Positions 22,756 to 62,816 of a stretch of DNA of 64,000 nt are shown here, in pieces. Under the pieces are notes generated by a model. That model was not told the DNA's origin, did no database searches, and worked only from the letters and a program-made list of their open reading frames with translations. Both the position numbers and the translations under genes were made by a program. Source of the stretch: a bacterium (GTDB lineage Bacteria > Bacillota > Clostridia > Lachnospirales > Lachnospiraceae); the NCBI GenBank assembly GCA_963624695.1, contig CAVFRH010000083.1, positions 28,185 through 92,184 on the forward strand, written 5' to 3'. Every line of letters starts with the position of its first letter. The first letter of the stretch is position 1.

Positions 22756-22756
22756 C

Positions 22757-22987
22757 TTATTCCTCCCTGAGTCTTGTGATCATCATCCACAAATTCTCTG
22801 CAGAATTAAAATTGTCCGGAACAATCTCAACCGTTGGAATCGTGATGTCATATTCCTCTTCAAGCTCTGAAACCAGGGAGATGATTGCCAGTGAATCAAG
22901 ATAGTGATCATCTATCAGGGTTGTACATGTGCTGTAATCTACCTCCGGCTGGATCTCCTCTAAAATCTCAATCAGTTTTTTGTCCAT
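22757..22987 (-). CDS. acyl / D-alanyl-type carrier protein
   Basis: 76 aa, acidic, with LDSLAIISLVSELEEEY containing the DSL phosphopantetheine-attachment serine. It ends 1 nt before the MBOAT start. Confidence 0.8.
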   Translation of the reverse strand: MDKKLIEILEEIQPEVDYSTCTTLIDDHYLDSLAIISLVSELEEEYDITIPTVEIVPDNFNSAENLWMMITRLREE

Positions 22988-23041
22988 GATCTGATACCTC
23001 TTTTCTTAAATTATATAATGATGTTTCTTTCAGAGCATTCA

Positions 23042-43525: not shown

Positions 43526-44860
43526 ATGTTAGCACTTATCGGTACATTAACTATCGTAATCATGCTCGTCCTGATTATGACCAAAAAACTACAGACATTG
43601 CTGGCACTGATCATTGTTCCAATCGTTGGCTGCCTCGTTGCCGGTTACACCGGGCTGATCACCGTGGAGGACGGAAGCTTTTCCCTGTCAACCATGGGTG
43701 ATTTTATCACCTCCGGTTTAAAGAGCATCGCACCAACGGGCGTTATGTTTATTTTTGCGATTTTATTCTTCGGCATTCTGACAGATGCCGGTACCTTTGA
43801 TCCGATTATCAAAGGCATTTTAAAAGTCGTAGGAAAAAACCCGGTTAAGATCTGTGTCGGAACGGTTATTCTTGCAAGCCTTGTTCACTTAGATGGCTCC
43901 GGTGCTGTTACCTTCCTGATCGCAATCCCTGCTTTGCTTCCTTTGTATGACAAGCTTGGAATGCGCAGAACCACTCTTGCTACCCTGGTTGCCCTTGGCG
44001 CCGGTGTTATGAACATGCTCCCATGGGGCGGACCTACCCTGCGTGCAGTAACCGCACTGGACACCACCATAAACGATCTGTATATCCCTATGGTTCCGGC
44101 CCAGATTGCAGGTATTGTCTTCATTATCCTGGTTGCAATTTTCCTTGGAAAGAAGGAAAAGAAACGTCTTGGCGATTCACTTGACAAAATCGAACTGGAC
44201 GACTCCACCTCAGCAAAAATCGAGGAAAACAGCTTAAAGCGTCCGAAGCTTTTTGTTTTCAATATTGCACTGATCATTCTGGCAGTTGTTGTTTTGATCA
44301 CATCCCTTTTGCCACCGGCTGCTGTATTTATGATTGCAACCGCAATTGCACTGCTGGTAAACTATCCGGACATCAAAACTCAGAAAGAGCTGGTCGATTC
44401 TCACGCAAAATCAGCCCTGATGATGGCAAGTATGCTTTTTGCAGCCGGTTCCTTTATCGGCATTATGCAGGGTTCCGGTATGCTGACTGCCATGAGCAGC
44501 GCTCTGGTAAGCCTGATTCCGGCTTCTCTTGGAAATGTACTTCCAACCATTATCGGTGTGATTTCCATGCCTTTGAGCTTACTGTTTGACCCGGATTCCT
44601 ATTACTATGGTGTTATGCCGGTTGTTGCCAATGCAGCAAGCGCCCTGGGTGTCGATCCTCTTATGATCGGCCGTGCTTCCATCATTGGACAGATGACCAC
44701 CGGATTCCCGATCAGCCCGCTGACCGGAGCTACCTTCCTTTTGACAGGTCTGGCAGGCATCGACCTTGGAGAGCATCAGAAGCATACCTTCATTTACTCA
44801 TTTTTAACCAGTATTGTAATGTTAATTGTAGCAATCATTATCGGTGCAATCAGCATTTAA
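43526..44860 (+). CDS. CitMHS-family (metal-citrate / organic anion) transporter
   Basis: N-terminus MLALIGTLTIVIMLVLIMTKKLQTLLALIIVPIVGCLVAG closely resembles the CitM/CitH N-termini. 444 aa, multi-pass. Confidence 0.8.
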   Translation: MLALIGTLTIVIMLVLIMTKKLQTLLALIIVPIVGCLVAGYTGLITVEDGSFSLSTMGDFITSGLKSIAPTGVMFIFAILFFGILTDAGTFDPIIKGILKVVGKNPVKICVGTVILASLVHLDGSGAVTFLIAIPALLPLYDKLGMRRTTLATLVALGAGVMNMLPWGGPTLRAVTALDTTINDLYIPMVPAQIAGIVFIILVAIFLGKKEKKRLGDSLDKIELDDSTSAKIEENSLKRPKLFVFNIALIILAVVVLITSLLPPAAVFMIATAIALLVNYPDIKTQKELVDSHAKSALMMASMLFAAGSFIGIMQGSGMLTAMSSALVSLIPASLGNVLPTIIGVISMPLSLLFDPDSYYYGVMPVVANAASALGVDPLMIGRASIIGQMTTGFPISPLTGATFLLTGLAGIDLGEHQKHTFIYSFLTSIVMLIVAIIIGAISI

Positions 44861-44891
44861 AAAATTCAACATTTTAAGAAAGGCATAAACA

Positions 44892-46244
44892 ATGAAAAAA
44901 ATCAGAATCGGAAGCGGCGCCGGTTATGCCGGAGATCGTATTGAGCCGGCAGTCGAGCTCATGGAAAAAGGAAACCTTGACTACATTATCTTTGAATGTC
45001 TTGCAGAGCGTACCATTGCCATCGGTCAGAAGGATAAGCTGGCTGACCCGACAAAGGGCTACAATCAGCTGCTGGAAGCCAGAATGAACAAAATCTTAAA
45101 GCTGGCAAAAGACAATCACATTAAAGTCATTACAAATATGGGTTCTGCAAATCCTCTGGCTGCTATGAACAAAACAGTGGAAATTGCCAAAGAACTGGGC
45201 GTTACCGGATTAAAGATTGCTGCAGTAACCGGAGATGACATTTTACCTCAAATCGACCAGTATTATGACAATCCTGTTTTAGAGCTTGACTGCAAGCTGG
45301 GCGATATGAAAGATTCTCTCCTGTCCACAAATGTATACCTTGGCTGCGACGGCATTTTAGAGGCTCTGGAAAATGGTGCTGATATTGTTATTACCGGCCG
45401 TGTATCGGATCCGGCCCTTTCCATTGCGCCACTGGTACATGAGTTTGGCTGGAACATCGACGACAATCCGGACCAGATGGGTCAGGCTGTCCTGGTTGGA
45501 CACCTGCTGGAATGTGCCGGTCAGGTAACAGGCGGATATTATGCAGACCCTGGCTTCAAGGATGTACCGGATCTTGACCGTCTTGGCTTCCCTCTGATTG
45601 AGATTGATGAAACTGGTCATTTCACCGTATCAAAGGTAGAAGGCTCCGGCGGACTTGTATGCGAGGATACCTGCAAAGAGCAGATGATCTATGAAATCCA
45701 CAATCCGGCTGCTTACCTTACTCCGGATGCTATTGCTGATTTTTCACATGTCACCTTTACCCAGCAGGGAAAAGACATTGTCGCTGCTGCAAATGCAACC
45801 TCTCACGGAAAACCGGAAACCTTAAAGGTAAGCATCGGTTACCGCGACTGCTTCACAGGAGAAGGCGAGATCAGCTACGGCGGACCAAATTCCATGGCTC
45901 GTGCAAAGCTGGCTGCAGATATTGTAGAAAAACGACTGAAACTCATTGGCTGTGAAATGGAAGAATTCCGTATCGACTACATTGGATTCAATTCTCTCTA
46001 CAAAGATAAAATTTCCAGTCAGTACGCACCGGAAGTATTTCCGGAAATCCGTCTTCGTGTCAGCGGCCGTACCAAGGACAAGGCAAATGCTGCTCTCATT
46101 GCAAATGAAGTAGAAGCTCTTTACACAAACGGCCCAGCCGGCGGAGCAGGTGCAACGAAAAAAGTATCTGAAATTGTATCGATCTGCTCCATCTTTGTTC
46201 CAAGAGACATTGTTGATATTCAGGTAAGCTATCAGGAGGTCTAA
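44892..46244 (+). CDS. DUF1446 (AtuA-like) family protein
   Basis: N-terminus IRIGSGAGYAGDRIEPAVELMEKGNLDYIIFECLAERTIA is characteristic of the AtuA/DUF1446 family. Confidence 0.75.
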   Translation: MKKIRIGSGAGYAGDRIEPAVELMEKGNLDYIIFECLAERTIAIGQKDKLADPTKGYNQLLEARMNKILKLAKDNHIKVITNMGSANPLAAMNKTVEIAKELGVTGLKIAAVTGDDILPQIDQYYDNPVLELDCKLGDMKDSLLSTNVYLGCDGILEALENGADIVITGRVSDPALSIAPLVHEFGWNIDDNPDQMGQAVLVGHLLECAGQVTGGYYADPGFKDVPDLDRLGFPLIEIDETGHFTVSKVEGSGGLVCEDTCKEQMIYEIHNPAAYLTPDAIADFSHVTFTQQGKDIVAAANATSHGKPETLKVSIGYRDCFTGEGEISYGGPNSMARAKLAADIVEKRLKLIGCEMEEFRIDYIGFNSLYKDKISSQYAPEVFPEIRLRVSGRTKDKANAALIANEVEALYTNGPAGGAGATKKVSEIVSICSIFVPRDIVDIQVSYQEV

Positions 46245-46248
46245 GATC

Positions 46249-46548
46249 ATGAAATTAAAAGAAATCGCACATTCAAGAACCGGTGATAAAGGAGATATTT
46301 CAAATATTTCTGTCATCGCCTACAAAGCAGAAGATTATCCTTTATTAAAAGAAAAGGTAACCTGTGAAAAAGTCAAAGAATACTTCGGTGAAATCTGCAA
46401 AGGAGAGGTCGTTCGCTACGACATCGACAGCCTCTGCGCCATGAATTTTGTTCTGGACAAAACCTTAGGCGGCGGCGTTACCCGCTCCCTGGCTTTGGAC
46501 AAACACGGAAAAGCCCTTGGAATGGCTTTGATGGAAATGGACATCTAA
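46249..46548 (+). CDS. DUF4387-like small protein, the usual partner of DUF1446
   Basis: 99 aa, MKLKEIAHSRTGDKGDISNISVIAY. It starts 4 nt after the DUF1446 stop. Confidence 0.65.
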   Translation: MKLKEIAHSRTGDKGDISNISVIAYKAEDYPLLKEKVTCEKVKEYFGEICKGEVVRYDIDSLCAMNFVLDKTLGGGVTRSLALDKHGKALGMALMEMDI

Positions 46549-46565
46549 CCTTTATAAACCTTAAC

Positions 46566-46606
46566 AATCGGAAAGAGAGATTACTCATCTCCCTTTCCGA
46601 TTTTGT
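46566..46606 (+). terminator. terminator of the sigma-54 operon, overlapping the 3' end of the convergent activator gene
   Basis: aatcggaaagagaga / ttactc / atctccctttccgatt followed by TTTG. Confidence 0.5.
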
Positions 46607-47915
46607 TATAGAGGGTTGCCAGAGAAATTCCAAGGGCCTTGGCTGCCTTTCTTTTCCCCTCCAGTGTATTTCCAAACTGCTCCAGTGCTGACATAATCTG
46701 CTGCCTTTCGTACTTGCGCACACGCTCTGCCAGAGTGGGGATTTTACTTCCGTTTCCTTCGCTCATGATGGTAGGCGGCAGGTCCTCTATGTCAATCTGA
46801 TTTTCATTTGTCATTAGAGCCGCATATTCCAGTATATTTTCCAGCTCCCGCACATTTCCCGGCCAGTTATAGCCTAGCAAAATTTCCTTTGCTGCTTCCG
46901 TTATTCCCATTTTTTTCTTATTCTGAATGGAAACCTTTTTCATATGATTTTCCAGCAGAGGGGCAATGTCTCCTTTTCTCTCCCGCAGCGGTGTCAAATA
47001 AAGAGGAACGGTGGCAATTCGATAATAGAGATCCTGTCGGAACTTCTTCTCTTCTACGTATTTTTTCAGATCTACGTTGCAGGCCCCAATGATCCGGACA
47101 TCGATTTCTATTTCTTTCGTTCCTCCGACTCTTCGGATCTTGTGTTCCTGAAGTGCCCGAAGCAGCTTTGCCTGCAGTGGATAATGCATCTCTGAGATTT
47201 CATCTAAAAATAAGGTCCCCTTATTTGCGATCTCAAATAATCCGGCTTTTCCACCCTTTTGTGCTCCGGTAAAGGCTCCATTTTCATAGCCAAACAGCTC
47301 GCACTCCAGCATATTTTCCGACAAAACAGCACAATTAATGGCAATAAAGGGATAGTTTCTCCGCTCACTTTCATTGTGTATGGCCTGTGCGTAAAGTTCT
47401 TTTCCGCATCCGCTCTCGCCCTGTAGCAGCACGGAAAGATCTGAATGTGCTACCTTCTTTGCCCTTTCAATGAAATTCATTGTGATCTCACTGCCATATA
47501 CAATCGAATCAAAATCATATCTGGTTCCGTTTACTTCCTTCATTCTTTCATCCAGGTATGACTCTTTTTCATTTAATTCTGCCAGCATTTTTGCCAGAAA
47601 TCTGGCACTTTCCAAAAAGGTAACGGTTGAAATTCCACCTGCAACCTTTCCATTTTCCCATATAGGATACATGCTGGCGAAGTATTCTTTTCCGTTTTCT
47701 ACCCGGTGCACCTGCTCCCGCATTTTTCCCGTTTTCATTACTCCCGGAAGCATAGCACCCGGACGAATTTCTATTAAAGGTCTTCCTTTTACATCATCTA
47801 ACTTATGCTCCACAAACTCTGCGTATGCATCATTAAAAAATACAATTTTTACTTCTTCGTCTACAATCAAAATGCCTTCTTTTACAGCATTTAGAATATT
47901 CTCGATCTTTTTCAT
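46581..47915 (-). CDS. sigma-54-dependent transcriptional activator (PAS - AAA+ - Fis-type HTH)
   Basis: Walker A GESGCGKE, the sigma-54 contact loop GAFTGA, Walker B FLDEISEM, VRELEN, and C-terminal HTH AAKALGISLATLYNKI. Confidence 0.9.
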   Translation of the reverse strand: MKKIENILNAVKEGILIVDEEVKIVFFNDAYAEFVEHKLDDVKGRPLIEIRPGAMLPGVMKTGKMREQVHRVENGKEYFASMYPIWENGKVAGGISTVTFLESARFLAKMLAELNEKESYLDERMKEVNGTRYDFDSIVYGSEITMNFIERAKKVAHSDLSVLLQGESGCGKELYAQAIHNESERRNYPFIAINCAVLSENMLECELFGYENGAFTGAQKGGKAGLFEIANKGTLFLDEISEMHYPLQAKLLRALQEHKIRRVGGTKEIEIDVRIIGACNVDLKKYVEEKKFRQDLYYRIATVPLYLTPLRERKGDIAPLLENHMKKVSIQNKKKMGITEAAKEILLGYNWPGNVRELENILEYAALMTNENQIDIEDLPPTIMSEGNGSKIPTLAERVRKYERQQIMSALEQFGNTLEGKRKAAKALGISLATLYNKIGKGDE

Positions 47916-51644: not shown

Positions 51645-52136
51645 TCAAAAATCATTTCTTTTATTTTTCAGGACTGTTTCAAAATAATTCAATGACGGTC
51701 TTTTTGCTCTTTTTGTAATTTCTCCTGCCTCTTTTACTTCATCCTCTGTTGGCTTATATTTTTCTAAGATTTCATCTATTTTTTCTTTTTCCGCCTGGGC
51801 AGGAAGTCTTTTTGAATTCCTTATATATTTTAGTATAGCTGTATATTTTTTAAAACTTTTTTTTAATGTAAGCTCCGCCTCTATCCGATCCCTGATTCCT
51901 TTTTTCTCTAAGATGTTCGCAATTGGATAAAGATAATCTAATTTTTCTGCTCCTCTTTCATAGATAAATTCCAAGAGCCATTTGATCAGCTCCGGATCAA
52001 AGGCATAGATAAGGAACATATCTTCTATTACCCTGCTGTCGTAAGCCGTGACCTTACGCTTCCACAGCCTGGAAACATTTCGAAGTACATCGATTATTTC
52101 CCCTTTGGAAAAATCGTAAAAATCATGATTTTTCAT
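51645..52136 (-). CDS. DnaD-domain-like replication accessory protein (tentative)
   Basis: Overlaps the Rep stop by 4 nt. The segment DPELIKWLLEFIYERGAEKLDYLYPIANILEKKGI has the shape of a DnaD/DnaB_2 C-terminal domain. Confidence 0.45.
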   Translation of the reverse strand: MKNHDFYDFSKGEIIDVLRNVSRLWKRKVTAYDSRVIEDMFLIYAFDPELIKWLLEFIYERGAEKLDYLYPIANILEKKGIRDRIEAELTLKKSFKKYTAILKYIRNSKRLPAQAEKEKIDEILEKYKPTEDEVKEAGEITKRAKRPSLNYFETVLKNKRNDF

Positions 52137-53299
52137 GATTCAATGAATTCCGCATCAAGCATCTCATTTGCTGCGTCTGCATACTCCTGATATGGATCTG
52201 CACTGTCTCCCCGAACAAGGTGTATGTCACTCTCCTCATTCAAGTCCCAGCCTTCCCTCAGCCCTGCAATCATCCAGGCAACCAAATCTTTTATCTCCGC
52301 CTGCTTTAAGGCCATCTCGTAGATTTTTTCGATTCTGTTAAAATTGCCTGCCGCTGCTTTTATAATGGCGGTCTCATCCCGCACGGACATTCCCTCCGGG
52401 ATCATGTCCTCAAATTTGATCAGCATATCTGCATCTACCTTAAAGCTTTCGATGATCGGCATGGAATAATTTGGATTTCTTGAGATTTCAAAATCAATTG
52501 CCACTACCTTTGCTCCCGCTCCGCCTCTGACCGGGGTACATTCTACATGAATGTCAGTGATCGCATTGATCTCGTCTACCGCCGGAAGCAATACACGGCG
52601 TCTAAAGTCTCTCCAGTTTATGTTTTTCTTCGCATCCGGACCGGCAATTTTATTTACAATGTATTCTGAATTTTTTCCGGCTTCCAGGGCGGACTGAACC
52701 TTGTCATCGTTAATGTCTACCTGTCCTGTGTACACCATAAAATCATATAAGTCATAGCGGACTGTTACATGATCCTGTCCCGACTTGATCTTGTAAAGAT
52801 GCGTGCGTAGTATTTCGTATATTCTGTAGGCCGAATTTGACCTTCCCTTTGAAAAAGACAGAAGGATGGACAGCTTCATGGGCGTGTAATTGTTTGACAA
52901 TTTGAAAATATGTTCTCGGATGCTCTTATCAAAGGAAACTGTGAAAACTCCATCCTTGTATTCGCATTCCCTTACAATAACCGACATTTTAAAATTATTT
53001 CGTGTCCTGTCCTGAATGACAAAGAAGTTCTGCATCAGATGCTTGGCACTGTACTTCAGCTTTGTATAAATGGATTTGCTGTCTTCCTCATTTAAAAGGG
53101 CCTTCAGTTCCGCTGCAGAAAAGGAAACCGTAAGGTCCTGATCGTTTCCGTAGCTTCTGTTTTGCAGGCGGCTGATGGACAACACCAAAAGCTTGCTTTC
53201 CAGCAATGTTGCCTTATATTTTGAACTGATAAATTCATTGGACCGAGTAACTACCGTATCATTTCCGCTCAGTGATAATATTTCCTTCTTCTCTTTCAA
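52133..53299 (-). CDS. plasmid-type replication initiator (RepB/Rep_3-like)
   Basis: N-terminus VVTRSNEFISSKYKATLLESKLLVLSISRLQ is typical of Rep_3 initiators. The gene is directly preceded by an iteron field. Confidence 0.75.
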   Translation of the reverse strand: MKEKKEILSLSGNDTVVTRSNEFISSKYKATLLESKLLVLSISRLQNRSYGNDQDLTVSFSAAELKALLNEEDSKSIYTKLKYSAKHLMQNFFVIQDRTRNNFKMSVIVRECEYKDGVFTVSFDKSIREHIFKLSNNYTPMKLSILLSFSKGRSNSAYRIYEILRTHLYKIKSGQDHVTVRYDLYDFMVYTGQVDINDDKVQSALEAGKNSEYIVNKIAGPDAKKNINWRDFRRRVLLPAVDEINAITDIHVECTPVRGGAGAKVVAIDFEISRNPNYSMPIIESFKVDADMLIKFEDMIPEGMSVRDETAIIKAAAGNFNRIEKIYEMALKQAEIKDLVAWMIAGLREGWDLNEESDIHLVRGDSADPYQEYADAANEMLDAEFIES

Positions 53300-53319
53300 A
53301 GCATTTCTCCCCTATCTTT

Positions 53320-54145
53320 TTGTGGCATTACTTTAGACCACTCATTCAAACTTATGCCACAGTTGTTTTTCGATTATAAAAGATCATTCGTACTGTGTCA
53401 ACAGTTTATACCAGCATTCTAAAGAGATGCCACATCTCCTATCATTCTCTCTCTTAGGCTGCAAACAGCTCCAGCTGACAGCTTTTTATTGTTTATAATA
53501 AAGAACAACATTTATTTCTTTTATTAAGAAGGGGAAATCCCTTGTAAAATAAGTCTTTTTCTTCATCGGCTGTGGCAGAAATTGAACCGTGGTGGGGCAG
53601 AAATGAAGAAACGCTGTGGCAGAATTTATACTCAGCTGTGGCGCTCCCATAGACAGCAAACTTTGCGAGACGTGGCAAATTTGCAGAAAAGAAATGGCAA
53701 ATTTCTCCCTAAGTTGTGGCATTTATTTCCACTTATCATGGCAAAAATAAGACCTGACCTTCTTTACACCCCGTAACTTATGGCATTTGTTTCAAATGCA
53801 AGTTCAAATAAATGCCACAGCTGTGAAAAATGTCTCGAATTCCGGCTATTTTCTATTAAATAAGCGATCGAAAGAAGAAAAAAGAGGTATATTTCAGATA
53901 TTTTTGCACCAAAAGAAAAGTTCGAGTCTAAATAAATGCCACAAGTAAAGTTTGGAATCCTTTAGATGTGGCATTTATTTGAACTAAAATCCGAAAAAAG
54001 TGGCAAAATAAAAGACTTTATACTTTACTTATGGCAATTCTTTCAACAAAAAAGCCTTTTCCAGAAAAGATGTGGCATTTATTTAGACAAAAGAAGCAAG
54101 ATGATTTTTAAAATAGAATTTATAAAAAAATCTGCCACTGGCAGC
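53320..54145. repeat. iteron field (putative theta-type origin) upstream of rep
   Basis: There are about 19 copies of the (T)GTGGCA core.
- Five perfect 14-mers TGTGGCATTTATTT: 53715-28 (+), 53806-19 (-), 53930-43 (-), 53967-80 (+), 54071-84 (+).
- Two blocks of four direct copies with exact 22-bp phasing (GGCA at 53574, 53596, 53618, 53640 and at 53674, 53696, 53718, 53740).
- Further copies at 53321 (+), 53354 (-), 53427 (-), 53779 (+), 53999 (+), 54030 (+).
- A TGCCACTGGCA palindrome at 54133. Confidence 0.8.
53472..53530. other. AT-rich stretch, candidate DNA-unwinding element
   Basis: ctttttattgtttataataaagaacaacatttatttcttttattaag lies between the rep-proximal and distal iteron groups. 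Confidence 0.3.
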
Positions 54146-54162
54146 TTTCCTTGCATACTTTG

Positions 54163-54196
54163 GTATAAAAAACAGCTCCGGAAATTTCCGGAGCTG
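54163..54196 (-). terminator. rho-independent terminator of the eda-containing operon
   Basis: Perfect 12-bp palindrome cagctccggaaa/tttccggagctg (54173-54196), followed on the minus strand by TTTTTTATACC. Confidence 0.65.
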
Positions 54197-54226
54197 CAAA
54201 TCTCTCTCTGTTCAATTCGATTCACA

Positions 54227-54853
54227 TCATTTTATGCTTTCAACCGCTTCCCGCGTCAGTTCTTCAATCTTGTCAAATTCGCCATTTTTGATCAATGAGT
54301 CTTTGACCATCCATGTTCCCCCGCAGGCTAAGACCTTGTCAAAAGCAAGATATTCCTTGACATTCTGAGCATTTATCCCACCCGTAGGCATAAAGCTGAG
54401 CATATGAAACGGGCCGGAAAAAGCCTTGATCGCAGGCAGACCTCCATTGACTTCAGCAGGAAAGAATTTTACAACATCGAGACCAAGTTCCAAAGCTTTT
54501 TCGATTTCACTGGCTGTCGCAACGCCTGGAAAAATCGGTATCTTCTTTTCCTGGCAATACAGAACCGTTTTTGGATTCAGTCCCGGACTTACAATGAATT
54601 TTGCTCCGGCTGCAATCGCCTCATCTACCTGATCTGTCGTAAGGACCGTTCCAGCCCCTACCAGCATATCCGGATATGCTTCCGTCATCTTTCGAATTGC
54701 CTCTCCTGCTGCCTCTGTCCGGAATGTAACCTCCGCACAAGCAAGGCCACCGCGCACTAAAGCTGCAGCCAATGAAACCGCATCCTTTGCGTCATCTATT
54801 TTAACAACCGGAACGATCCTTAATGCACGAATTTTTTCTTTTAATTCATTCAT
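54227..54853 (-). CDS. eda: 2-dehydro-3-deoxyphosphogluconate (KDPG) / 4-hydroxy-2-oxoglutarate aldolase
   Basis: Motifs VPVVKI, EVTFRT, GAGTVLT, and VKFFPAE (Schiff-base Lys region). Confidence 0.85.
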   Translation of the reverse strand: MNELKEKIRALRIVPVVKIDDAKDAVSLAAALVRGGLACAEVTFRTEAAGEAIRKMTEAYPDMLVGAGTVLTTDQVDEAIAAGAKFIVSPGLNPKTVLYCQEKKIPIFPGVATASEIEKALELGLDVVKFFPAEVNGGLPAIKAFSGPFHMLSFMPTGGINAQNVKEYLAFDKVLACGGTWMVKDSLIKNGEFDKIEELTREAVESIK

Positions 54854-54868
54854 AATGCTTTTCCTCCA

Positions 54869-55411
54869 TTACCAGTGTGTCTTTGTGGCTGTTTCGTTGG
54901 CTGTATGATCTCTGCGGCTCAAAAGAAGGCACAAAGCATCCAGTGTAATATGCAAACTCTGATCAAATAAGGAGCTAAGGAGCTGTATGGATCCTCTCTC
55001 ATTTCCCATATCACCTTTCACCGTTCCCGGAATAACGAGAACCGTATCCGCATTTTCCGTTAATGGAGATTCCTTCTTGCTGGTTACAGCGATCACCGTG
55101 CATCCTGCCTTCTTGGCTTTCGCTGCATCCCCAACTACACCGGCACTTTTTCCGGAACCGGAAACACCTATGAAGACATCCCCCTCAGCCATAGCCGGAG
55201 TAATTGTCTCACCAACAAAATAAACCGTATAGCCGATGTGCATAAGGCGCATCGCAAATCCTCTTGCCGAATATCCGGAACGGCCTTCTCCGGACACGAA
55301 TACCCGGTGTTCCTTATTAAGCTGCTTCATAACTGCCTCAAGTTCTTCTTCACTTACTTTTTCTATGACAGAATTGATTTCTGCCATGATATCTTTCAAA
55401 ACCTCTACCAT
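54869..55411 (-). CDS. hxlB: SIS-domain 6-phospho-3-hexuloisomerase-like protein
   Basis: GEGRSGYSARGFAMRLMHIG and GVSGSGKS SIS motifs. 180 aa. Adjacent to the HPS-like gene. Confidence 0.7.
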   Translation of the reverse strand: MVEVLKDIMAEINSVIEKVSEEELEAVMKQLNKEHRVFVSGEGRSGYSARGFAMRLMHIGYTVYFVGETITPAMAEGDVFIGVSGSGKSAGVVGDAAKAKKAGCTVIAVTSKKESPLTENADTVLVIPGTVKGDMGNERGSIQLLSSLFDQSLHITLDALCLLLSRRDHTANETATKTHW

Positions 55412-55412
55412 A

Positions 55413-56042
55413 TCAATACCTCTTTATTTCTTCTGAAAACAATCCGGTCTCTTTCTTGATATCCTCAGATTTGGTAATTGCACTTCCTACGATAACGATG
55501 TCTATGTTGTGTGCCGCCATCAGGGAAATATTGTTCAACTTAACGCCACCGGCCACGGCCAATTTTTTTACGCCGTTCATGCTTTCACACATATCCCTGA
55601 CCATTTCTTCCAGACCGTCGCCTTCCTTGTCTGCCGGAAGATGCAAGCAGAAAATAGCCTCCGGAAACTCCTTTTTCAAACTTTCCAAGCGATCCTTTGG
55701 CACTTCCAAAAGATCGATCATATATTCTTTTCCAAACTGCTCGGCCACCTGTGCACAGGACTTAATCGTTGTCAGCGATGAAAAGCCCATAACGGTTGCA
55801 ATGTCGCATCCGTTTTCATAAGCTTTCTGAAATTCATATGCTCCTTCATCGCAGGTTTTTATATCCGCCAGGATGCATTGTTCCGGAAATTTTTTCTTTA
55901 AGGTACCGACACTGCCGGCAAGGCCAAAATCCTTGATCAAAGAAGTTCCAACCTCTATAATATCTGCCCGGCCGGATGTAGCTGCAATGACATTTCCTGC
56001 AGACTCTACGGATACCCTGTCGATTGCCACCTGAAGTCTCAT
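55413..56042 (-). CDS. hxlA: 3-hexulose-6-phosphate synthase-like protein (OMP-decarboxylase superfamily; the alternative is a 3-keto-L-gulonate-6-P decarboxylase type)
   Basis: MRLQVAIDR, IIEVGTSLIK, LADIKTCDEG (closer to the HPS DLKTMDAG than the UlaD DAKIADAG), VAGGVK, IVIVGSAI. Confidence 0.65.
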   Translation of the reverse strand: MRLQVAIDRVSVESAGNVIAATSGRADIIEVGTSLIKDFGLAGSVGTLKKKFPEQCILADIKTCDEGAYEFQKAYENGCDIATVMGFSSLTTIKSCAQVAEQFGKEYMIDLLEVPKDRLESLKKEFPEAIFCLHLPADKEGDGLEEMVRDMCESMNGVKKLAVAGGVKLNNISLMAAHNIDIVIVGSAITKSEDIKKETGLFSEEIKRY

Positions 56043-56980
56043 TGTGCCTTCTCCTTCATATAACGATCCAGCTCTTCCTTTGTTGGAAGACCTTCATTGT
56101 CACCGGCTACAGATACCTGGATTGAACCGATTGCATTCCCACGTTTTATCATTTCCGGAAGACTTTTCTCTTCAAGCCATGCACTGATCACACCTACTGC
56201 AAATCCATCTCCTGCTCCTACAGTATCCACAACCTTCTCCACCTTATATCCTGAGTAAGCTGCTTTTCCCTCGTCACTGTCCACATAAGCACCACGGGAT
56301 CCGTCTTTGACAATGACGATCTTGGCTCCATTTTTTCGATAAAATTCTGCTATCTTTGCTGGCTCATCGCTTCCCATAAGAATTTTTCCTTCTCCGGTTC
56401 CCGGAAGTACGATATCTGCCTTGAAGGCAATATCATTGATCGTCTGAATCATCACATCCTGGCTCTCCCACAATGTCGGACGAAGATTTGGATCGAAGCA
56501 GACAAGCATCTGATTTTCTCTGGCTCGCTCAATCAGCCGATAGGTTGCTTCCCTGGTACTTTTGGAAAGTGCCGGAGCAATACCTGTGATATGGAGCACT
56601 TTCGCCCCATTTAAATCGATCTTGTCAATGTCTTCAACTGACATATGAGAAGCCGCACTGTTTCGGCGATAATAAAACACCTCCGGGTCACCCTCTGTCA
56701 CCTTGCTTTTAAGCTGATAGCCTGTAAAATGATCCGCATCTTTTGTAATGCATACATCAAGCCCTTCTGCCTTTAATCTGTTTTCGATGCTTGTTCCGAA
56801 CGGATCTGTTCCAAGTCTTGTAACATATGTTACGGAATGTCCCAGTCTTTTTAAGCCAATTGCAACATTCACTTCCGCTCCTGCGAGCATTCTCGTAAAC
56901 TCTTCCACCTCATAAAGCGGTCCGCAGGTCTTGGCCACGAACATCACCATGGGTTCTCCAAATAATATAACTTCCGACAT
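56039..56980 (-). CDS. kdgK: PfkB-family sugar kinase, 2-dehydro-3-deoxygluconokinase-like
   Basis: N-terminus VILFGEPMVMF..GAEVNVAIGL and C-terminal DTVGAGDGF motif. Co-operonic with eda. Confidence 0.75.
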   Translation of the reverse strand: MSEVILFGEPMVMFVAKTCGPLYEVEEFTRMLAGAEVNVAIGLKRLGHSVTYVTRLGTDPFGTSIENRLKAEGLDVCITKDADHFTGYQLKSKVTEGDPEVFYYRRNSAASHMSVEDIDKIDLNGAKVLHITGIAPALSKSTREATYRLIERARENQMLVCFDPNLRPTLWESQDVMIQTINDIAFKADIVLPGTGEGKILMGSDEPAKIAEFYRKNGAKIVIVKDGSRGAYVDSDEGKAAYSGYKVEKVVDTVGAGDGFAVGVISAWLEEKSLPEMIKRGNAIGSIQVSVAGDNEGLPTKEELDRYMKEKAQ

Positions 56981-56999
56981 AATTTACCTCTTTTTCAAG

Positions 57000-57980
57000 T
57001 TATGTCGTCTCCCTTAATACGAGCTCCGGAATAACCACTAAAGAAGCCGTTTCTTTTTTCTTAGAAAGTACTTCTAAAAGCAACTGAACCGTCAGTTCAC
57101 TGAGTACCTCACCCTTATTGTTCACCGTTGAAAGCATTGGACTGCAGATATAAGAATATTCCGAATTGTTGCATCCGATTAAAGCAATTTCCTCCGGAAT
57201 CTTCACACCACACTTGCGCCACTCATTCATCGCACCAACTGCCGTGAGATCCTCACCGAAGACGACACCGTCATAACCTTTTTTTCTCAATATGTGGGCT
57301 ACTTTTGCTCCACCTTCCACGCCGTATGCGGTTCGATATACATCCTCTTCCGGATGCTTACAGCCAAATGCTTTCATTGCTTTCAAAAAACCATCTCTCT
57401 TTCGGTCTGCTGCATTTGTGTATTTATCTATCACATAGGCTAATTTTTCCCGACCATTCTTTTGCAAATGCTCAACAGCCAGTTCCATTCCTCTTCCTTC
57501 ATCTACGATGACGGAATAAACATTTTTTCGGTCAAGAAATCCATTGGCCATAACAATCGGTATGTCATTCAAAAGATTAAGGGTTTCGTCATCACACAAA
57601 TGATTAAAAATAGATCCAACCAAAATAATGCCATCTACCTGCCTTTGTGCAAGCATCCGCAAATATTTCCGGCACTCCTCTTTTCCTTCGCCGGTATTGC
57701 AGACCAGAACCATATAACCTTCCTCTGAAAGTCGCTGCTCCATAATATAGGAAGTCAGAGCATAGTGTGGAACCCTGACATCCACGACAACAATCGCCAC
57801 TGTTTTCATGGATCCTGTCGCCAGTCCTCTGGCAATACCGCTAGGCTGATATTCATTGTGTTCAAGGACAGCCTGTATCTTTTCTCTTGTTTTTTCGCTT
57901 ACATATCCTTTGTTATTGATTACTCTTGATACGGTAGTAATGGATACTCCTGCTTCTTTTGCAATATCATATATGGTCAT
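57000..57980 (-). CDS. LacI-family transcriptional regulator
   Basis: HTH MTIYDIAKEAGVSITTVSRVINNKGYVSEKTREKI plus a periplasmic-binding-fold effector domain. Confidence 0.9.
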   Translation of the reverse strand: MTIYDIAKEAGVSITTVSRVINNKGYVSEKTREKIQAVLEHNEYQPSGIARGLATGSMKTVAIVVVDVRVPHYALTSYIMEQRLSEEGYMVLVCNTGEGKEECRKYLRMLAQRQVDGIILVGSIFNHLCDDETLNLLNDIPIVMANGFLDRKNVYSVIVDEGRGMELAVEHLQKNGREKLAYVIDKYTNAADRKRDGFLKAMKAFGCKHPEEDVYRTAYGVEGGAKVAHILRKKGYDGVVFGEDLTAVGAMNEWRKCGVKIPEEIALIGCNNSEYSYICSPMLSTVNNKGEVLSELTVQLLLEVLSKKKETASLVVIPELVLRETT

Positions 57981-58084
57981 AATCTATTCCCGTTCTTTCT
58001 CGTATTGATTGCAAAAGTATCATAAACAATCTACCCCTAATTTTCAAGAAGAGCAGAAAATAAGAAATTCGGGATTCTTCTAAC

Positions 58085-58543
58085 TTAATTCACCTTGACT
58101 TTTACAACTATTTTTTTTACATGACATGGCTCTTTCCCGATACATCTGGGCTGATGACCATCGTCAGGTGATACTACAGCAAAATCTCCTTTCTTCAAAT
58201 GAAGACGACCGCTTATTTGGGGAAACTGGTAAAACTCCAGATCGCATTTTTCATCATATCCGGTATCTTTTTCCAGTTCCTTGACAGAAATAAAACCAAA
58301 ATACTCTTCACCCTCTGCCATATACTGAATGTCAAAATATTTCCTGTGTGACTCAAACTTACACTCTTCAAAAGGTTTCGTCACATACTCCTGAACCTCC
58401 GCAAAAATATCATCTCCATCGATTTCAATTTTTCCTTCATGCAGAGAGGAAAAATCTGTTTCTTTCAAAAAAGCAAACGCCTTTTGAAATCTTTCTCCCA
58501 GATAGTCATATTTCTGCGCATTTGTAATTGTCGTTGTTAACAT
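58085..58543 (-). CDS. YhcH/YjgK/YiaL-family (DUF386) protein
   Basis: 152-aa cupin-like protein. Family-typical features (..FESHRKYFDIQY..GEE.., ..DFAVVSPDDGHQP). ATG 58543 is preceded by AAGAGGTG. Confidence 0.65.
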   Translation of the reverse strand: MLTTTITNAQKYDYLGERFQKAFAFLKETDFSSLHEGKIEIDGDDIFAEVQEYVTKPFEECKFESHRKYFDIQYMAEGEEYFGFISVKELEKDTGYDEKCDLEFYQFPQISGRLHLKKGDFAVVSPDDGHQPRCIGKEPCHVKKIVVKVKVN

Positions 58544-58599
58544 TGACACCTCTTTTCTAATATGGGAACCGGCACCTGCAAGCTGCGTAAATTTTTCAT

Positions 58600-59274
58600 T
58601 TACTTTTCTTTTCTGTCTCGAATTCCTGCCGCTTCCATTATCTCTTCAAATAAAGCCTCTGCTGCCTCGCTGTTATAGCTGTACATGAGAAGGACATCTA
58701 ACACGTATGGCGAAAAATCGATCCCGGATAGTTTCTTTGCAAAGGCCATTGCCGCCATTTCGCTTAAGGCTATTAGCCTTGATTTATTCGAAAATGGTTT
58801 TCGCCACAGTTCGATCTTTTCTGTCTGTGTAAAGATTTCCTTCCGTTTTCTGTACTCGATCCCATGAAATAATTCATGGGCAATCAGGATTTCTTTTAGA
58901 TCGGTATCTGGAAAAAGCATGCAAAGATCCTTGCTCGTGATTAAATCTTCTGCCTTTTTGACACAGTCCATATACACCGTAATTTCACTAGGTTCCGTGT
59001 ACTGGGCAAAAATGACATGCCCGCCGCCTGACGGAATAAGGGGTAGCTTCACCTCAAATCCCAGCTCTTTGCTTATCTCTTCTGCTGTCATCTGGGGATA
59101 TTCTTCTCTTAGGAGCATGGCTTCATCATTTCCGCATTTTATCGCACGTTTTGTATAAGATAACTTCTGTTCAGAAGTCAATTTGCGCTCAAGCGGTTCA
59201 TGATAAAAAGCATATCCGCCCCACTGCTCATCGGTCAGAGTTAGAAGTTCCTCTATCATGCTTTTGATCTTCAT
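58600..59274 (-). CDS. hypothetical protein with an HExxH zinc-metallopeptidase-like motif
   Basis: ILIAHELFHGIEYRK. GGAAAGGAGAGG RBS. No family recognised. Confidence 0.5.
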   Translation of the reverse strand: MKIKSMIEELLTLTDEQWGGYAFYHEPLERKLTSEQKLSYTKRAIKCGNDEAMLLREEYPQMTAEEISKELGFEVKLPLIPSGGGHVIFAQYTEPSEITVYMDCVKKAEDLITSKDLCMLFPDTDLKEILIAHELFHGIEYRKRKEIFTQTEKIELWRKPFSNKSRLIALSEMAAMAFAKKLSGIDFSPYVLDVLLMYSYNSEAAEALFEEIMEAAGIRDRKEK

Positions 59275-59306
59275 CTGCCCTCTCCTTTCCCGATCTGTCG
59301 AAATTT

Positions 59307-61436
59307 TTATGCCTGACTCTTAGCACCTACGACAACGATATCCATATTCTGATCCAGGCTCTGAAGTTCTACGTCCATCAACATAAGAACCTGTTCCAAT
59401 TCTCCGGATCCATTGAAATCCATTACTCTTGCACCGGCACAGATGTAATAATCCGGTCTTAAAATGGCGTCCGCTTTGTAAATTGCCAATTCTTCCCACA
59501 ATTTTGAAACCACACTTCTGTATCCGGAAGCCTTAGCCGCAATGGCAACACCATCTGTTCTCTGTACCTTTATGAAGCCTTTTTTATCGAGGATTCGAAT
59601 TGGCTTGCGATTTTTCTCTTCGGCCTGATAAACGTAGAAGTTCGGGATCCTGCATACCAGCTTGATCTGATCTTCCTTCTTTCTAAGATCAGCCGCAGCC
59701 AGTTTTCTCGCCTCTTCCTCCGTACATTCTTTCATCAGATCAGCGGTCTTAACTTCAGTAGAACCAAGCGCAATTGCCGTAAGCTTAGAGGTCTGCGGAT
59801 CAATTTCGATGTGTACTTCAACCGTATCCGGTGATGCGCCACTCTCTACTGCTTTATCGACTGCTTCCGCCTTTATGCTTCTGATGTCCTCCGCTGTTGG
59901 ATTTGGTACAACTCTTTCCACAACATCACGTACCATAGCCAGAGCTACACCAATAGAAGATATAACCTCTGCATTTTCCGGTACACTGTAATTAATGTTC
60001 ATTTTCTGAGCACAGAAGCCAATCAGTGATGTAGCGCCTCCGCCGACACCAACCAGAGCAATCTGGTCATGCTCAAGCTTATATTTATCTGCCAGTTCCA
60101 AGATAACTGGGCTGATTTTCTCATAGGCTCTCGTCAAAATCTGCGTTGCCACTTCCTCAACGGTCACACCAAGATAATCTGCCACCGGTTTCATGGCCTT
60201 GCGTGCTGAGTTTGCATTTCCATAAGAAAAATGCTCTGGCTTTACCAAGCCCAGTACATTGGCCGCACAGGAATTCGTGATTGTAATTCTCTTTCCGCTT
60301 TTCAACTTGATGGCTACATAATCTGACGGATCACCCTCTTTTGGAGAAAACAGCTCAAGCTGCGGGTCAACAATCTCTTCCTCCGGTGTAAATACCGCAT
60401 AATCCAGACCAGCGATATGAGCAGATCTTGGCCCTACATCTGACACACCACTTTTACTCAGACGAATCATACTTCCACCGGCAACACCTAAAACCCGGAC
60501 ATCCAAAGAGGTAATATAGGTCCGATGTCCTCCGACGATGGAATAATCAATCGCCGGCCGTCCATTTTTGATTACACCTATATTCGTTGTGGTACCGCCT
60601 ACCTCAAAGTAAACACCGTTGGAAGCACGCAGATACATCAACGAGCCCATAACAGAAGCTGCAGGACCAGACAGCATCGTCAAAACCGGACGTTTTTTCA
60701 TTTCATTGATTTCCATGACTCCGCCATCTCCACGCATGATCATAAGCGGAACCTTAACTCCGGCATTTCTTACAGACTGTTCGGTCTGATTGGCTGTGTT
60801 GAGCATTTTGGGAAGAATGCTGGCATTAATCGCTGCTGTCCTCGTTCTTCTTGTCAGGCCATACAGCTTCGTGATGTCGGAAGCGATACTCGTTTCCATT
60901 CCCATTTCACCCTTTGTTACATTGTAAATTGCCTGTTCTGAGCTCATATCGTCTACACCGAAGGCTTCCGAAGCAACAAAGACCTGTGCACCCTTGTTTT
61001 TCAGTTTTTTTGCTGCCTGCAGGATGTTATCGTGATTCAAATCTTTTTCTTTGATAAATTCATTGCAGATTTCAATCTTTCTTCCGGATCCAAGGTCTAT
61101 ATTGTGCAGCTTTGTCTGAGCCTTCGCTAAGAGTCCTTCCAGTCCGCCCTGAGAGCTTCCAATGACTCCTACCTTTGCCACATCGCCTTCGATCAATGCA
61201 TTTGTTGCCTGGGTTGTACTGTGTGCCACAAAGACAACATCTTCCGGATCGATCTTATTTTCCTTCAGACAATTTTCAAATGCCTGTACAACCCCGGCTG
61301 CTACGCCCGAAACATCATCATGTGTCGTTTTAACGGATGATTTTCCGATAATTTCCTGTGTTGCATTATCAATCGCTACTGCTTTCGTATGGGTACCGCC
61401 TACATCGATACCCATTCTAACTTTACGTTTACTCAT
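59307..61436 (-). CDS. hydantoinase/oxoprolinase-family (ASKHA-fold ATPase) protein
   Basis: N-terminal GIDVGGTHTKAV phosphate-1 motif and a second ASKHA half (LVGVGGGATSLIG). About 709 aa. ATG 61436 is preceded by GGAGGATG; alternative start at 61451. Confidence 0.75.
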   Translation of the reverse strand: MSKRKVRMGIDVGGTHTKAVAIDNATQEIIGKSSVKTTHDDVSGVAAGVVQAFENCLKENKIDPEDVVFVAHSTTQATNALIEGDVAKVGVIGSSQGGLEGLLAKAQTKLHNIDLGSGRKIEICNEFIKEKDLNHDNILQAAKKLKNKGAQVFVASEAFGVDDMSSEQAIYNVTKGEMGMETSIASDITKLYGLTRRTRTAAINASILPKMLNTANQTEQSVRNAGVKVPLMIMRGDGGVMEINEMKKRPVLTMLSGPAASVMGSLMYLRASNGVYFEVGGTTTNIGVIKNGRPAIDYSIVGGHRTYITSLDVRVLGVAGGSMIRLSKSGVSDVGPRSAHIAGLDYAVFTPEEEIVDPQLELFSPKEGDPSDYVAIKLKSGKRITITNSCAANVLGLVKPEHFSYGNANSARKAMKPVADYLGVTVEEVATQILTRAYEKISPVILELADKYKLEHDQIALVGVGGGATSLIGFCAQKMNINYSVPENAEVISSIGVALAMVRDVVERVVPNPTAEDIRSIKAEAVDKAVESGASPDTVEVHIEIDPQTSKLTAIALGSTEVKTADLMKECTEEEARKLAAADLRKKEDQIKLVCRIPNFYVYQAEEKNRKPIRILDKKGFIKVQRTDGVAIAAKASGYRSVVSKLWEELAIYKADAILRPDYYICAGARVMDFNGSGELEQVLMLMDVELQSLDQNMDIVVVGAKSQA

Positions 61437-61463
61437 TCTCACATCCTCCATCTGTATCCTGTT

Positions 61464-62816
61464 TTAACCAAACATGAAGTAAACCATTGCCTGAAGAATA
61501 ATGCAGATAATCCAGCCTACAACTGCACTGAGTTTCAGATAATCCTTCGTGGATACCTTGGCATAGTTAACACCCCATATAATCCAGGACTGTGTAATAC
61601 AGCATGAAACGTTCATAACCGTACTCGGAATAATGATCAGCGGAGCCAGATATGCTGTTGAGAATCCAATTCCCTTTAAAATTCCAAGCGTTGCTGCACC
61701 GCAGCCAAATAAGGTAAACGGTCCACGGAACATACCAAGAGGAGCCAGAACTGCAAAAGCAATGCTGATGATCAAGGTATTGTTTGGGATAATTCCTCCC
61801 AGCAGAGCATTGAAATACGGTACGCACAATTCAGCTGCTTTGTTGAACATGGGAAGAACAAGCAGGAAGCCAACCAACGGAGCGGTATCAACCACACCAT
61901 CAAAGAAATCCTTGTTTACCATACGGCAGGTCTGACCCCAGCCTTTGATCTTTCCGCAGGTGATCAATGCATAAACGCTTCCTATGATAAATCCCAGGAT
62001 AATCGGAACATTGAAAACAATAAGCAAAACAACCGGAATAATCGGTGAAATCAGAGCAATACCCGGAGCATTGTCTCCACGGCGTTTCTTCTTGTCTACC
62101 GGTGCTGTTGCTGCCCAGCTGTGTACTTTCTTTTTGTGACTTAAAACAATGACCATGATGATAATGACAATCATCTGAATGATCATAGCGTAGATACCCC
62201 AGGAAACGTGCTGTTCGTATGGATATAAGGTAGTTCCGTCCTCTCCGAGGAAGAATGCCGAATACTGCCCATATAAAACCGGATTGACAAACATACCGGC
62301 GCCAACACTTAACATAAAGGCACAGGTTGCCAGCACCTTCGGAATACCAAGGGACATGAAAATCGGAAGAACAATGACACCAATCGCAACGACTGCACCG
62401 GCACCGAAGATGGATGAGAAGCATGCTGTTGTTACGATACAAAGCAATATACATGTGATTGCCGGCTTGTCACCGCCAAGTTCCGTTGTTGTTCGAATCA
62501 AAGTAGATGCTATGCCTGTATTCATAAGTACTCGTCCGAACCAGGCACCAAAGATAACATTAACGAGTGTTGCACCCCAGCCTTCTGGTCCGCTCTGAAA
62601 TACTTTCTTCAAAGCTTCCTGCCAGGTAATGCTGATCGAATCCGCATTTGCGGAAATAAAATCTGGATTTGTTACGAATGTATTTCCGATCATCGGCAAT
62701 ACAGTCCATATAATGGCCATAACAAAGATTCCAAGCATAAGGTTTCCACCGCGAACGGCATAGACAACCAAACCGAAAAAGGAAACCAATAGTAGAATTC
62801 CAATTACATACTCCAT
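61464..62816 (-). CDS. ion-transporter-superfamily permease (GntP/CitMHS/DcuC-like; subfamily unresolved)
   Basis: 450 aa, at least 11 TM, AGGAGGG RBS. First gene of the LacI-controlled locus. Confidence 0.55.
   Translation of the reverse strand: MEYVIGILLLVSFFGLVVYAVRGGNLMLGIFVMAIIWTVLPMIGNTFVTNPDFISANADSISITWQEALKKVFQSGPEGWGATLVNVIFGAWFGRVLMNTGIASTLIRTTTELGGDKPAITCILLCIVTTACFSSIFGAGAVVAIGVIVLPIFMSLGIPKVLATCAFMLSVGAGMFVNPVLYGQYSAFFLGEDGTTLYPYEQHVSWGIYAMIIQMIVIIIMVIVLSHKKKVHSWAATAPVDKKKRRGDNAPGIALISPIIPVVLLIVFNVPIILGFIIGSVYALITCGKIKGWGQTCRMVNKDFFDGVVDTAPLVGFLLVLPMFNKAAELCVPYFNALLGGIIPNNTLIISIAFAVLAPLGMFRGPFTLFGCGAATLGILKGIGFSTAYLAPLIIIPSTVMNVSCCITQSWIIWGVNYAKVSTKDYLKLSAVVGWIICIILQAMVYFMFG

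Follow-up and report, generated by a model that had tools for sequence, protein, structure and literature searches.

Plasmid-type replication origins are usually taken as proof of a plasmid or chromid, and the iteron plasmids with Rep_3-type initiators include lactococcal theta plasmids such as pCI305. In Lachnospiraceae, megaplasmids and chromids are represented by the 243-kb plasmid of Roseburia sp. 831b, pNP243 of Butyrivibrio fibrisolvens, and pCY186 and BPc2 of B. proteoclasticus (PMC2914790, PMC5716241, PMC11237740). In the naturally fused chromosomes of Vibrio cholerae NSCV1 and NSCV2, an intact ori2 and its initiator are kept inside a larger chromosome, either active or silent (PMC6284228). 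This work concerns a replication locus in a 64,000-nucleotide stretch of DNA from an uncultured gut bacterium of the Lachnospiraceae (contig CAVFRH010000083.1 of assembly GCA_963624695.1, the whole stretch being referred to as the window), in which a preliminary description had recognised a plasmid-type replication module embedded among metabolic genes. Its anatomy predicts a complete and working theta-replication module of the iteron type, derived from a plasmid and composed of the initiator gene rep, the gene for a DnaD-like helper and a 764-bp iteron field (Table 1). We lean, at about even confidence, to the reading that this module is now embedded, as a passenger or as a secondary origin, within a chromosome or a fused replicon (a chromid fused with the chromosome).

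The N-terminal winged helix (WH1) of the Rep protein matches Pfam Rep3_N (E = 1.8e-22, 80.7 bits with a cutoff of 22.4, residues 17-164), and the second winged helix (WH2, spanning about residues 190-272) matches Rep3_C (E = 3.8e-11, residues 227-272); a C-terminal extension of approximately 110 amino acids is conserved among Lachnospiraceae Reps. A profile built from Rep and its relatives matches RepE of plasmid F (2Z9O and 1REP, about 1e-9), RepA of pPS10 (1HKQ) and the pi protein of R6K (2NRA, the match covering residues 222-272), while the AlphaFold2 (AF2) model of Rep was poor (predicted local distance difference test score, pLDDT, 62.8) and was not used. With WH1, WH2 and homology to solved initiators, Rep is assigned to the Rep_3 iteron-binding initiators (PF01051/PF21205), as the preliminary description had supposed. 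Homologues are scarce: among 5.8 billion proteins there was one at 99% identity, one at 72% and one at 62%, the others being at 27%. When the GTDB genomes were queried with the single Rep sequence there were zero matches, although an alignment-based scan of the same source did find loci (described below). The start codon of rep is not ATG in three diverged lineages, i.e. TTG in the window (53297-53299), TTG in the related locus L003 (L003:590) and GTG in L005 (L005:1504), which would fit selection for low initiator translation.

The stop codon of rep and the start codon of the second gene overlap in ATGA. The product of this second gene was rightly named DnaD-like in the preliminary description, since it matches Pfam DnaB_2 (PF07261) at E = 7.7e-13 (48.4 bits, curated cutoff 22). 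Its AF2 model is all-helical, with eight helices and a pLDDT of 86.9; Foldseek comparison of the model with PDB gave zero matches at E<0.5, and phmmer against the PDB sequences gave zero as well. The helper family is very small. A protein search found 14 homologues at 52-62% identity, 3 representative clusters were detected at E<1e-30 among 1.84 billion, and there was no match in PLSDB and none in PHROGs. In every relative context examined, the DnaD-like gene lies directly downstream of a Rep_3 gene, and it is from this invariable adjacency, and from this only, that a link of the protein to the initiator and to the host helicase loader is predicted. No intrinsic terminator was found 3' of the DnaD-like gene, which is followed by a PNPOx-like gene and then by a MatE gene, both co-directional with it.

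The intergenic region between rep and eda is 927 bp long and contains 20 (T/G)GGC(A/G) cores, the variants GGGCA and TGGCG included, close to the approximately 19 copies of a (T)GTGGCA core counted previously. Exact TGTGGCA is found 20 times in the window, where 8.7 copies are expected for the whole 64 kb, and 10 of the 20 lie in 53321-54077. The shorter TGGCA/TGCCA occurs 18 times in the 927-bp region, i.e. 19.4 per kb vs 3.25 per kb window-wide (six-fold); the maximum in a 927-bp stretch away from the locus is 8. Five perfect TGTGGCATTTATTT 14-mers are present, as had been noted, three on the + strand (53715, 53967 and 54071) and two on the - strand (53806-53819 and 53930-53943), and in a scan of the window all TGTGGCATTTATTT matches with two or fewer mismatches fell inside 53321-54084. 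The latter interval defines the field of 764 bp, which becomes 824 bp when the palindrome CTGCCACTGGCAG is added (the first estimate was about 830 bp). Also upheld were the two blocks of four direct copies at exact 22-bp spacing beside an AT-rich stretch. Block A is of the TGTGGCAGAAAT type with cores at 53573, 53595, 53617 and 53639, all kept in L012, a strain at about 95% average nucleotide identity (ANI) that was used for within-species comparison; block B has cores at 53673, 53695, 53717 and 53739, and its third copy is a perfect 14-mer. Beside block A the GC content falls to 0.22 (53480-53539), and the AT-rich patch at this place carries AAATGTTGTTCTT. The distal field includes inverted pairs whose cores are 32 bp apart (53781/53813 and 53937/53969), together with direct copies at 53969, 54001, 54032 and 54073. 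The palindrome is not conserved in L012, so it is probably dispensable.

Table 1. Features of the replication module in window coordinates
Feature	Position	Strand	Basis
DnaD-like accessory gene (DnaB_2 domain), 163 aa	51645-52136	-	Pfam DnaB_2
rep, Rep_3-family initiator, 388 aa, TTG start	52133-53299	-	Pfam, PDB-profile matches, dN/dS
Ribosome-binding site (RBS) GGGGAG, 7 nt 5' of the rep TTG start	53307-53312	-	read from sequence
Inverted iteron-like pair, proposed Rep operator, between -10 box and RBS	53321-53361		site positions
rep promoter TTGACA-17-TATAAT, sigma-70, 12/12 consensus positions	53373-53401	-	promoter match
Single iteron-like site just 5' of the -35 box	53421-53434	-	site positions
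AT-rich patch, proposed DNA-unwinding element	53480-53545		GC content
Iteron block A, four direct copies	53569-53660	+	repeat analysis
Iteron block B, four direct copies	53668-53760	+	repeat analysis
Distal iteron field, 14-mer-type sites in both orientations, proposed copy-control/handcuffing sites	53779-54084		repeat analysis
Palindrome, two cores head to head	54132-54144		repeat analysis
Intrinsic terminator of upstream eda, outer module edge	54172-54197	-	terminator match

Read in the direction of rep, the order of elements is eda terminator, distal field, eight phased iterons, AT-rich patch, single site, promoter, inverted pair, RBS and TTG. The TGTGGCA copies of the operator pair (53321-53327 on the + strand and 53355-53361 on the - strand) are 32 bp apart core to core and belong to 14-bp sites at 53321-53334 and 53348-53361. 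A search for DnaA boxes in 53300-54226 gave zero TTATCCACA matches with up to one mismatch. With phased direct repeats, an AT-rich element and an inverted operator, the locus has the predicted anatomy of an iteron-type theta origin, and the layout of promoter and operator fits autoregulation of rep. The iteron-type origin with an autoregulated rep gene that was first proposed is thus supported by the domains, the profile matches, and the conserved architecture and purifying selection described below. The working of the module can be outlined from this anatomy, from the action of RepE, pi and RepA, and from helicase loading in Firmicutes. Rep monomers would bind the eight 22-bp-phased direct iterons (53569-53760), upon which the adjacent AT-rich element would open, and the DnaD-like protein may couple the Rep-origin complex to host helicase loading (DnaB/DnaI-DnaC in Firmicutes). 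Bound to the inverted sites around the perfect promoter, Rep dimers would repress rep, the weak TTG start would keep Rep scarce, and the distal 14-mers in both orientations may titrate or handcuff Rep for copy control.

The same Rep and DnaD-like gene pair is present in the relatives with 72% (L003/L004) and 62% (L005) identical Rep. In L003 and L005, repeats with the related cores TGCCAC and TGCCAT are phased at 22 bp, an AT-rich patch with the motif ATGTTGTT/ATTGTTGTT occupies the equivalent position, a strong promoter is flanked by iteron-like sites, and the position of the operator pair is likewise occupied. Speculatively, the conserved ATGTTGTT motif could act in binding or unwinding at the AT-rich patch, perhaps as a signal for the helper protein. 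More distant loci, with Reps 27-30% identical to the window Rep, keep the gene pair and layout as well, and across both groups of relatives the iteron cores co-vary (TGCCAC, TGCCAT, TGGCAAAAATGTAAGT and GGGAAAAAAGTGAG). In L079-L081 (contigs of approximately 33-35 kb) the Rep_3 and DnaD-like genes have parA-parB 3 kb upstream and a tyrosine recombinase gene downstream, which is a plasmid-like layout; in L078 (a 110-kb contig) they lie among ordinary metabolic and repair genes and an IS110-family transposase gene. The upstream regions of these distant loci, 650 bp and 1340 bp in length, are dense in their own repeats. The iteron field of the window had been called unusually long and complex, but with relatives' fields of 650-1340 bp and copies in both orientations it is typical of its family. 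DnaA-box-like TGTGGATAA/T motifs were seen in two relatives, four being clustered in L005:350-420 and two being separate in L079 (approximately 7610-7625 and 8230-8245).

The exact Rep with identical flanks recurs across many metagenome assemblies. Of the differences between the rep genes of the window and L012, 48 are synonymous and 4 nonsynonymous (dN/dS 0.019), a constraint equal to that of the neighbouring metabolic genes. Substitutions affect 3 of 162 positions in the iteron cores vs 51 of 620 in the spacers (one-sided Fisher p=0.0015). From the low dN/dS and the shortage of core substitutions, Rep and its predicted binding sites are both judged to be maintained by selection. The L012 field has one additional 21-bp iteron unit (ACTTATGGCATTTTTTTCAAC) near window position 54025, and in that strain the eda terminator and the distal iteron end are separated by an inserted Flavodoxin_2 gene (L012:18674-19285), beyond which the terminator is retained.

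To decide what kind of replicon carries the module, strand asymmetry was followed across the window. The GC skew of the + strand is negative in every 2-kb interval over the 64 kb, and the - strand carries about 43 of the 48 window genes, to the left of the origin as well as to the right. Mere coding-strand composition was considered as the cause and rejected, as the six + strand genes also have a negative third-codon-position skew on the + strand, the third-position skew being negative for both gene orientations to the left and to the right of the origin; the asymmetry is therefore mutational and goes beyond a coding-strand effect. This points to the - strand as the leading strand throughout the window, with a right-to-left fork that would cross the origin co-directionally with rep. 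Since the leading strand is unbroken through the origin, the site does not appear to have served as a bidirectional origin over evolutionary time, and we conclude from the compositional record that bidirectional replication of the surrounding DNA does not start at the module. The GC-skew plot recommended in the preliminary description thus gave no support for bidirectional replication from the site: skew, third-position skew and gene orientation all continue unchanged through it, in contrast to most relatives with ParA, which switch at rep. The GC content of the cassette equals that of its flanks.

That contrast comes from the alignment-based scan of GTDB genomes, in which 56 related Rep loci were found, all belonging to Lachnospiraceae or to gut and rumen Clostridia closely related to them; 39 had enough flanking sequence on both sides for skew analysis. 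A skew switch at rep was observed at 19 of the 25 loci with an adjacent ParA gene vs 2 of the 14 without. Among the other 12 ParA-less loci, the rep-sense strand is G-rich on both sides in 6 (window-like), C-rich on both sides in 2, and the skew is weak in 4. Rep is accordingly co-oriented with the apparent leading strand in 6 of the ParA-less loci and opposed to it in 2 (L026 and L027), the spread that would be expected of passengers. In relatives with the full 6 kb of upstream sequence, parA lies within 6 kb of rep in 22 of 36. L006 and L078 switch skew at rep, and in the 243-kb plasmid of Roseburia sp. 831b the genes diverge from the parA-rep region. The ParA-less class includes loci on a 735-kb contig (from the isolate Brotonthovivens ammoniilytica Sanger_109) and on an 832-kb contig, and its members sit among ordinary genes (dacB-like, trmB-like, two-component). 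The cassettes of L026/L027, L035, L057/L058/L062 and L068 have iteron fields of 0.7-0.9 kb and no par gene within 6 kb, and at least two ParA-less clades are syntenic across species. In L057, L058 and L062, which represent three species, Rep is 91-96% identical at the amino acid level with synonymous sites near saturation (omega 0.02-0.03). Close to rep, L026 and the window lineage each have a 710-aa protein without Pfam match; this was dismissed as coincidence, the two having no sequence similarity.

In human-gut relatives (HydA 91-93% and Eda 78-81% identical), a nine-gene block to the right of the origin is retained (window 54227-62816, compared with L083-L118), in the order g450-hydantoinase-g224-DUF386-LacI-KdgK-HPS-SIS-Eda, where HPS stands for hexulose-6-phosphate synthase. 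Downstream of eda, these relatives have no rep, DnaD-like, PNPOx or MatE gene. Their downstream neighbour varies by lineage: a pst operon (pst-phoU-phoR in L086), era-recO with a class II aminoacyl-tRNA synthetase gene (L092, a relative with 92% identical HydA), or LysR-IlvD. The eda end, with a different neighbour in each lineage, is thus a recurrent rearrangement point. In the left flank, a 73%-identical MatE orthologue adjoins an Asn/Asp-tRNA synthetase gene and gatCAB on contigs of up to 595 kb; its close homologues include one from 'Ventrimonas sp.' With the right block found near era, recO and a synthetase gene, and the left orthologue near a synthetase gene and gatCAB, genes of both flanks are chromosomal in relatives, and the cassette lies at a synteny breakpoint.

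The preliminary description had asked whether the window belongs to a secondary replicon or holds a plasmid or phage cassette captured by the chromosome. It was the right question, and its phage variant can be set aside (see below); between the other two answers we lean to the embedded cassette on four grounds: the lack of par, the lack of a skew or orientation switch, the chromosomal position of the flanks in relatives, and the existence of a class of ParA-less, skew-neutral cassettes, some of them on contigs as large as a chromosome arm. The module had been described as lacking visible partition, mobilisation, conjugation, integrase and phage genes over about 10 kb on either side; this now holds for the whole window, which has no relaxase gene either. 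Neither the window nor the extensions L012 and L018, about 84 kb taken together, were matched when three ParA queries and one ParB query were run by tblastn; the extensions reach approximately 10 kb past each window end and were sampled from other strains' contigs, so that a par locus farther out is possible. The extensions had no integrase, relaxase, conjugation or phage genes either. Among the marks by which megaplasmids and chromids are recognised, the locus has the plasmid-type initiator, while a partition system, origin-centred strand asymmetry and, for chromids only, core or essential genes were not found. As an embedded cassette, the module would be replicated passively within a larger replicon, and selection would keep it as a silent, conditional or co-directional secondary origin.

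Several observations weigh against the embedded state. No flanking direct or inverted repeats of at least 10 bp were detected at the cassette edges, and integration scars are absent. The examined 84 kb (about 48 window genes plus the extensions) contain no essential genes, tRNA or rRNA, tRNA and Rfam scans of the window found nothing, and the gene content resembles that of Lachnospiraceae megaplasmids and chromids; the relatives of HydA on plasmids are only about 40% identical and are uninformative in this respect. Contigs carrying the module, which come from fragmented metagenome-assembled genomes, do not exceed 170 kb, a length close to that of related megaplasmids. Among completely sequenced replicons, the nearest Reps belong to 186-243-kb plasmids, i.e. 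the Roseburia and Butyrivibrio megaplasmids with metabolic genes, and the Rep and DnaD-like relatives on the 33-35-kb contigs are accompanied by parAB and a tyrosine recombinase gene. Strong purifying selection, as seen for both Rep and the iterons, is the expectation for a sole origin and needs special explanation in a passive cassette. Finally, unidirectional replication away from a Rep-iteron barrier would also fit the observed polarity, in which iterons, AT-rich element and rep follow one another and the leading strand runs the way rep does.

All of these points except the lack of scars can be put together in the explanation that survives best beside the embedded cassette: a secondary replicon (megaplasmid or chromid of at least 170 kb) with the module as its sole origin, which fires unidirectionally. 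Iteron-bound Rep would block the upstream fork, and replication would leave the AT-rich element through rep; firing in one direction round the circle would leave one leading strand and no skew switch, and for a separate replicon this is the only mode that fits the absence of a switch. The observed polarity is the predicted one if the Rep-iteron complex blocks the opposite fork, as would be expected for an iteron plasmid. Chromids with unidirectional replication have been reported (PMC12053903). We hold this explanation to be possible but on balance doubtful. It has to accommodate the missing ParA/ParB in about 84 kb vs parA within 6 kb in most of the relatives that could be assessed, and the position of both flanks in the chromosomes of relatives. 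Relatives on contigs of approximately 100 kb, L078 with its Rep and DnaD-like pair among them, switch skew at rep, so unidirectional firing would be special to the window lineage; and in the ParA-less L026 and L027, rep is opposed to the apparent leading strand.

Rep_3 proteins such as RepE and pi are known autorepressors, and a Rep_3 protein could have been domesticated as a DNA-binding regulator or nucleoid organiser, with the repeats as regulatory or titration sites and no initiation. Purifying selection without an origin signature in the skew would agree with such a role, as would the synteny of ParA-less Rep_3 genes across species. We nevertheless consider it improbable, because the full origin apparatus is conserved (phased iterons, the AT-rich element with its conserved motif, and the dedicated DnaD-like helper) and no target promoters outside the locus bear the motif. 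An integrated mobile element (prophage, phage-plasmid, integrative and conjugative or integrative and mobilizable element, or recently integrated small plasmid) with the locus as its replication module is scarcely credible. Synteny with relatives does break at the boundary of eda and the origin, Rep matches two PHROG families, and distant Reps occur in one unannotated 'Bacteriophage sp.' record (24% identity) and two IMG/VR contigs (23%). Against this reading, the helper lacks PHROG and PLSDB matches, the window and extensions have no mobility or phage genes, flanking direct repeats are missing, GC equals that of the flanks, and the locus keeps a stable position between identical flanks, both across many samples and in the 95%-ANI strain; a phage origin was rejected.

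If the embedded cassette is the correct reading, a broader proposal can be made, which we regard as unlikely on present grounds: that Lachnospiraceae chromosomes carry par-less Rep_3/iteron cassettes as stable, strongly selected, DnaA-independent secondary origins, the window locus, equipped with a DnaD-like helicase-loading adaptor of its own, being one of them. Such chromosomal origins would fire co-directionally or conditionally and hence leave no GC-skew mark. If the cassettes do lie in chromosomes and are active there, bacteria would possess natural secondary origins, and hence multi-origin chromosomes comparable to archaeal ones with captured extrachromosomal origins. Were the window and its like unidirectional chromids, multipartite genomes would be commoner in gut Lachnospiraceae than annotation suggests. 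Under either reading, replicon calls from the presence of rep alone are unreliable in this family. In our own judgement, the module is also a candidate replicon for Lachnospiraceae vectors.

The genes around the module are efflux, sugar-acid catabolism, gdh and pepD genes as listed in the preliminary description, more exactly MatE efflux, a 2-keto-3-deoxygluconate (KDG)/Eda operon, gdh and an M20 PepD-like peptidase. Within the KdgK-Eda sugar-acid operon, window 54869-56042 contains a SIS-domain gene (6-phospho-3-hexuloisomerase-like) and an OMPdecase/HUMPS gene (hexulose-6-phosphate-synthase-like), and this combination of ribulose-monophosphate-type enzymes with KDG catabolism is an unusual mix. 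A 2877-aa protein is encoded on the - strand at 3037-11670, with purple-acid-phosphatase N, PhoD_N, metallophosphoesterase and C-terminal Big_2 domains, and in L018 a further giant gene (about 2475 aa, YDG domain) is found immediately past the left window end. All strains seen have conserved a lone 194-aa open reading frame (11908-12492, + strand) that bears a weak HNH endonuclease motif and is flanked by the giant surface-protein gene and a polysaccharide deacetylase gene. The cluster at 21154-25914 (- strand) codes for an MBOAT acyltransferase, a pyridoxal-phosphate enzyme resembling ornithine/diaminopimelate decarboxylase or alanine racemase, and an AMP-binding enzyme, and resembles a Dlt-like or other cell-envelope acylation system. 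At 43526-47915, CitMHS transporter and AtuA-family genes form one of the few + strand islands of the window, beside a sigma-54 activator gene (PAS-AAA-HTH) on the - strand. Past the right window end, L012:1-9700 is a low-GC (0.36) variable region with HTH_38 (IS30-like), AAA_14/DUF4143 and Fic genes; several other assemblies break a few kb past this end, which suggests strain-variable or repeated DNA.

Compared with known systems, the module is closest in construction to the iteron plasmids with RepE (F), pi (R6K) and RepA (pPS10). It has a WH1-WH2 initiator, direct iterons phased at about 22 bp beside an AT-rich element, an inverted partial-iteron operator at the rep promoter, and extra iteron clusters suited to copy control. 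It differs in the placing of the AT-rich element, which separates the iterons from the rep promoter, whereas in those plasmids it is distal; in the lack of DnaA boxes; in its much longer field (about 0.8 kb, 20 sites); in the translational coupling of rep to the DnaD-like gene; and in having no par locus nearby. With the Lachnospiraceae megaplasmids it shares the Rep_3 clade (23-31% identity), a long iteron field, host-like GC content, and ordinary metabolic, transport and signalling cargo; in these megaplasmids, however, parA or parAB is only a few kb away from rep and there is no DnaD-like partner gene, while the window has the partner gene but no par, divergence or skew switch. The V. cholerae chromosomes NSCV1 and NSCV2, in which an intact plasmid-type iteron origin resides in a larger chromosome, are the documented analogue of the embedded state, with the distinctions that their initiator is RctB, the fusions are recent and the par genes are kept, whereas in the window the skew is fully equilibrated and only rep and the helper are left. 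The remaining ParA-less cassettes of Lachnospiraceae (L026/L027, L035, L057/L058/L062 and L068) are alike in rep, iterons, ordinary neighbours and the absence of a skew switch, but their Reps are just 26-33% identical to the window Rep, they are without a DnaD-like gene, and some are on the 735-832-kb contigs. What is new here is the rare subfamily with rep joined to a small DnaD-like gene, a par-less context that is not origin-centred, and the wider class of such cassettes in Lachnospiraceae.

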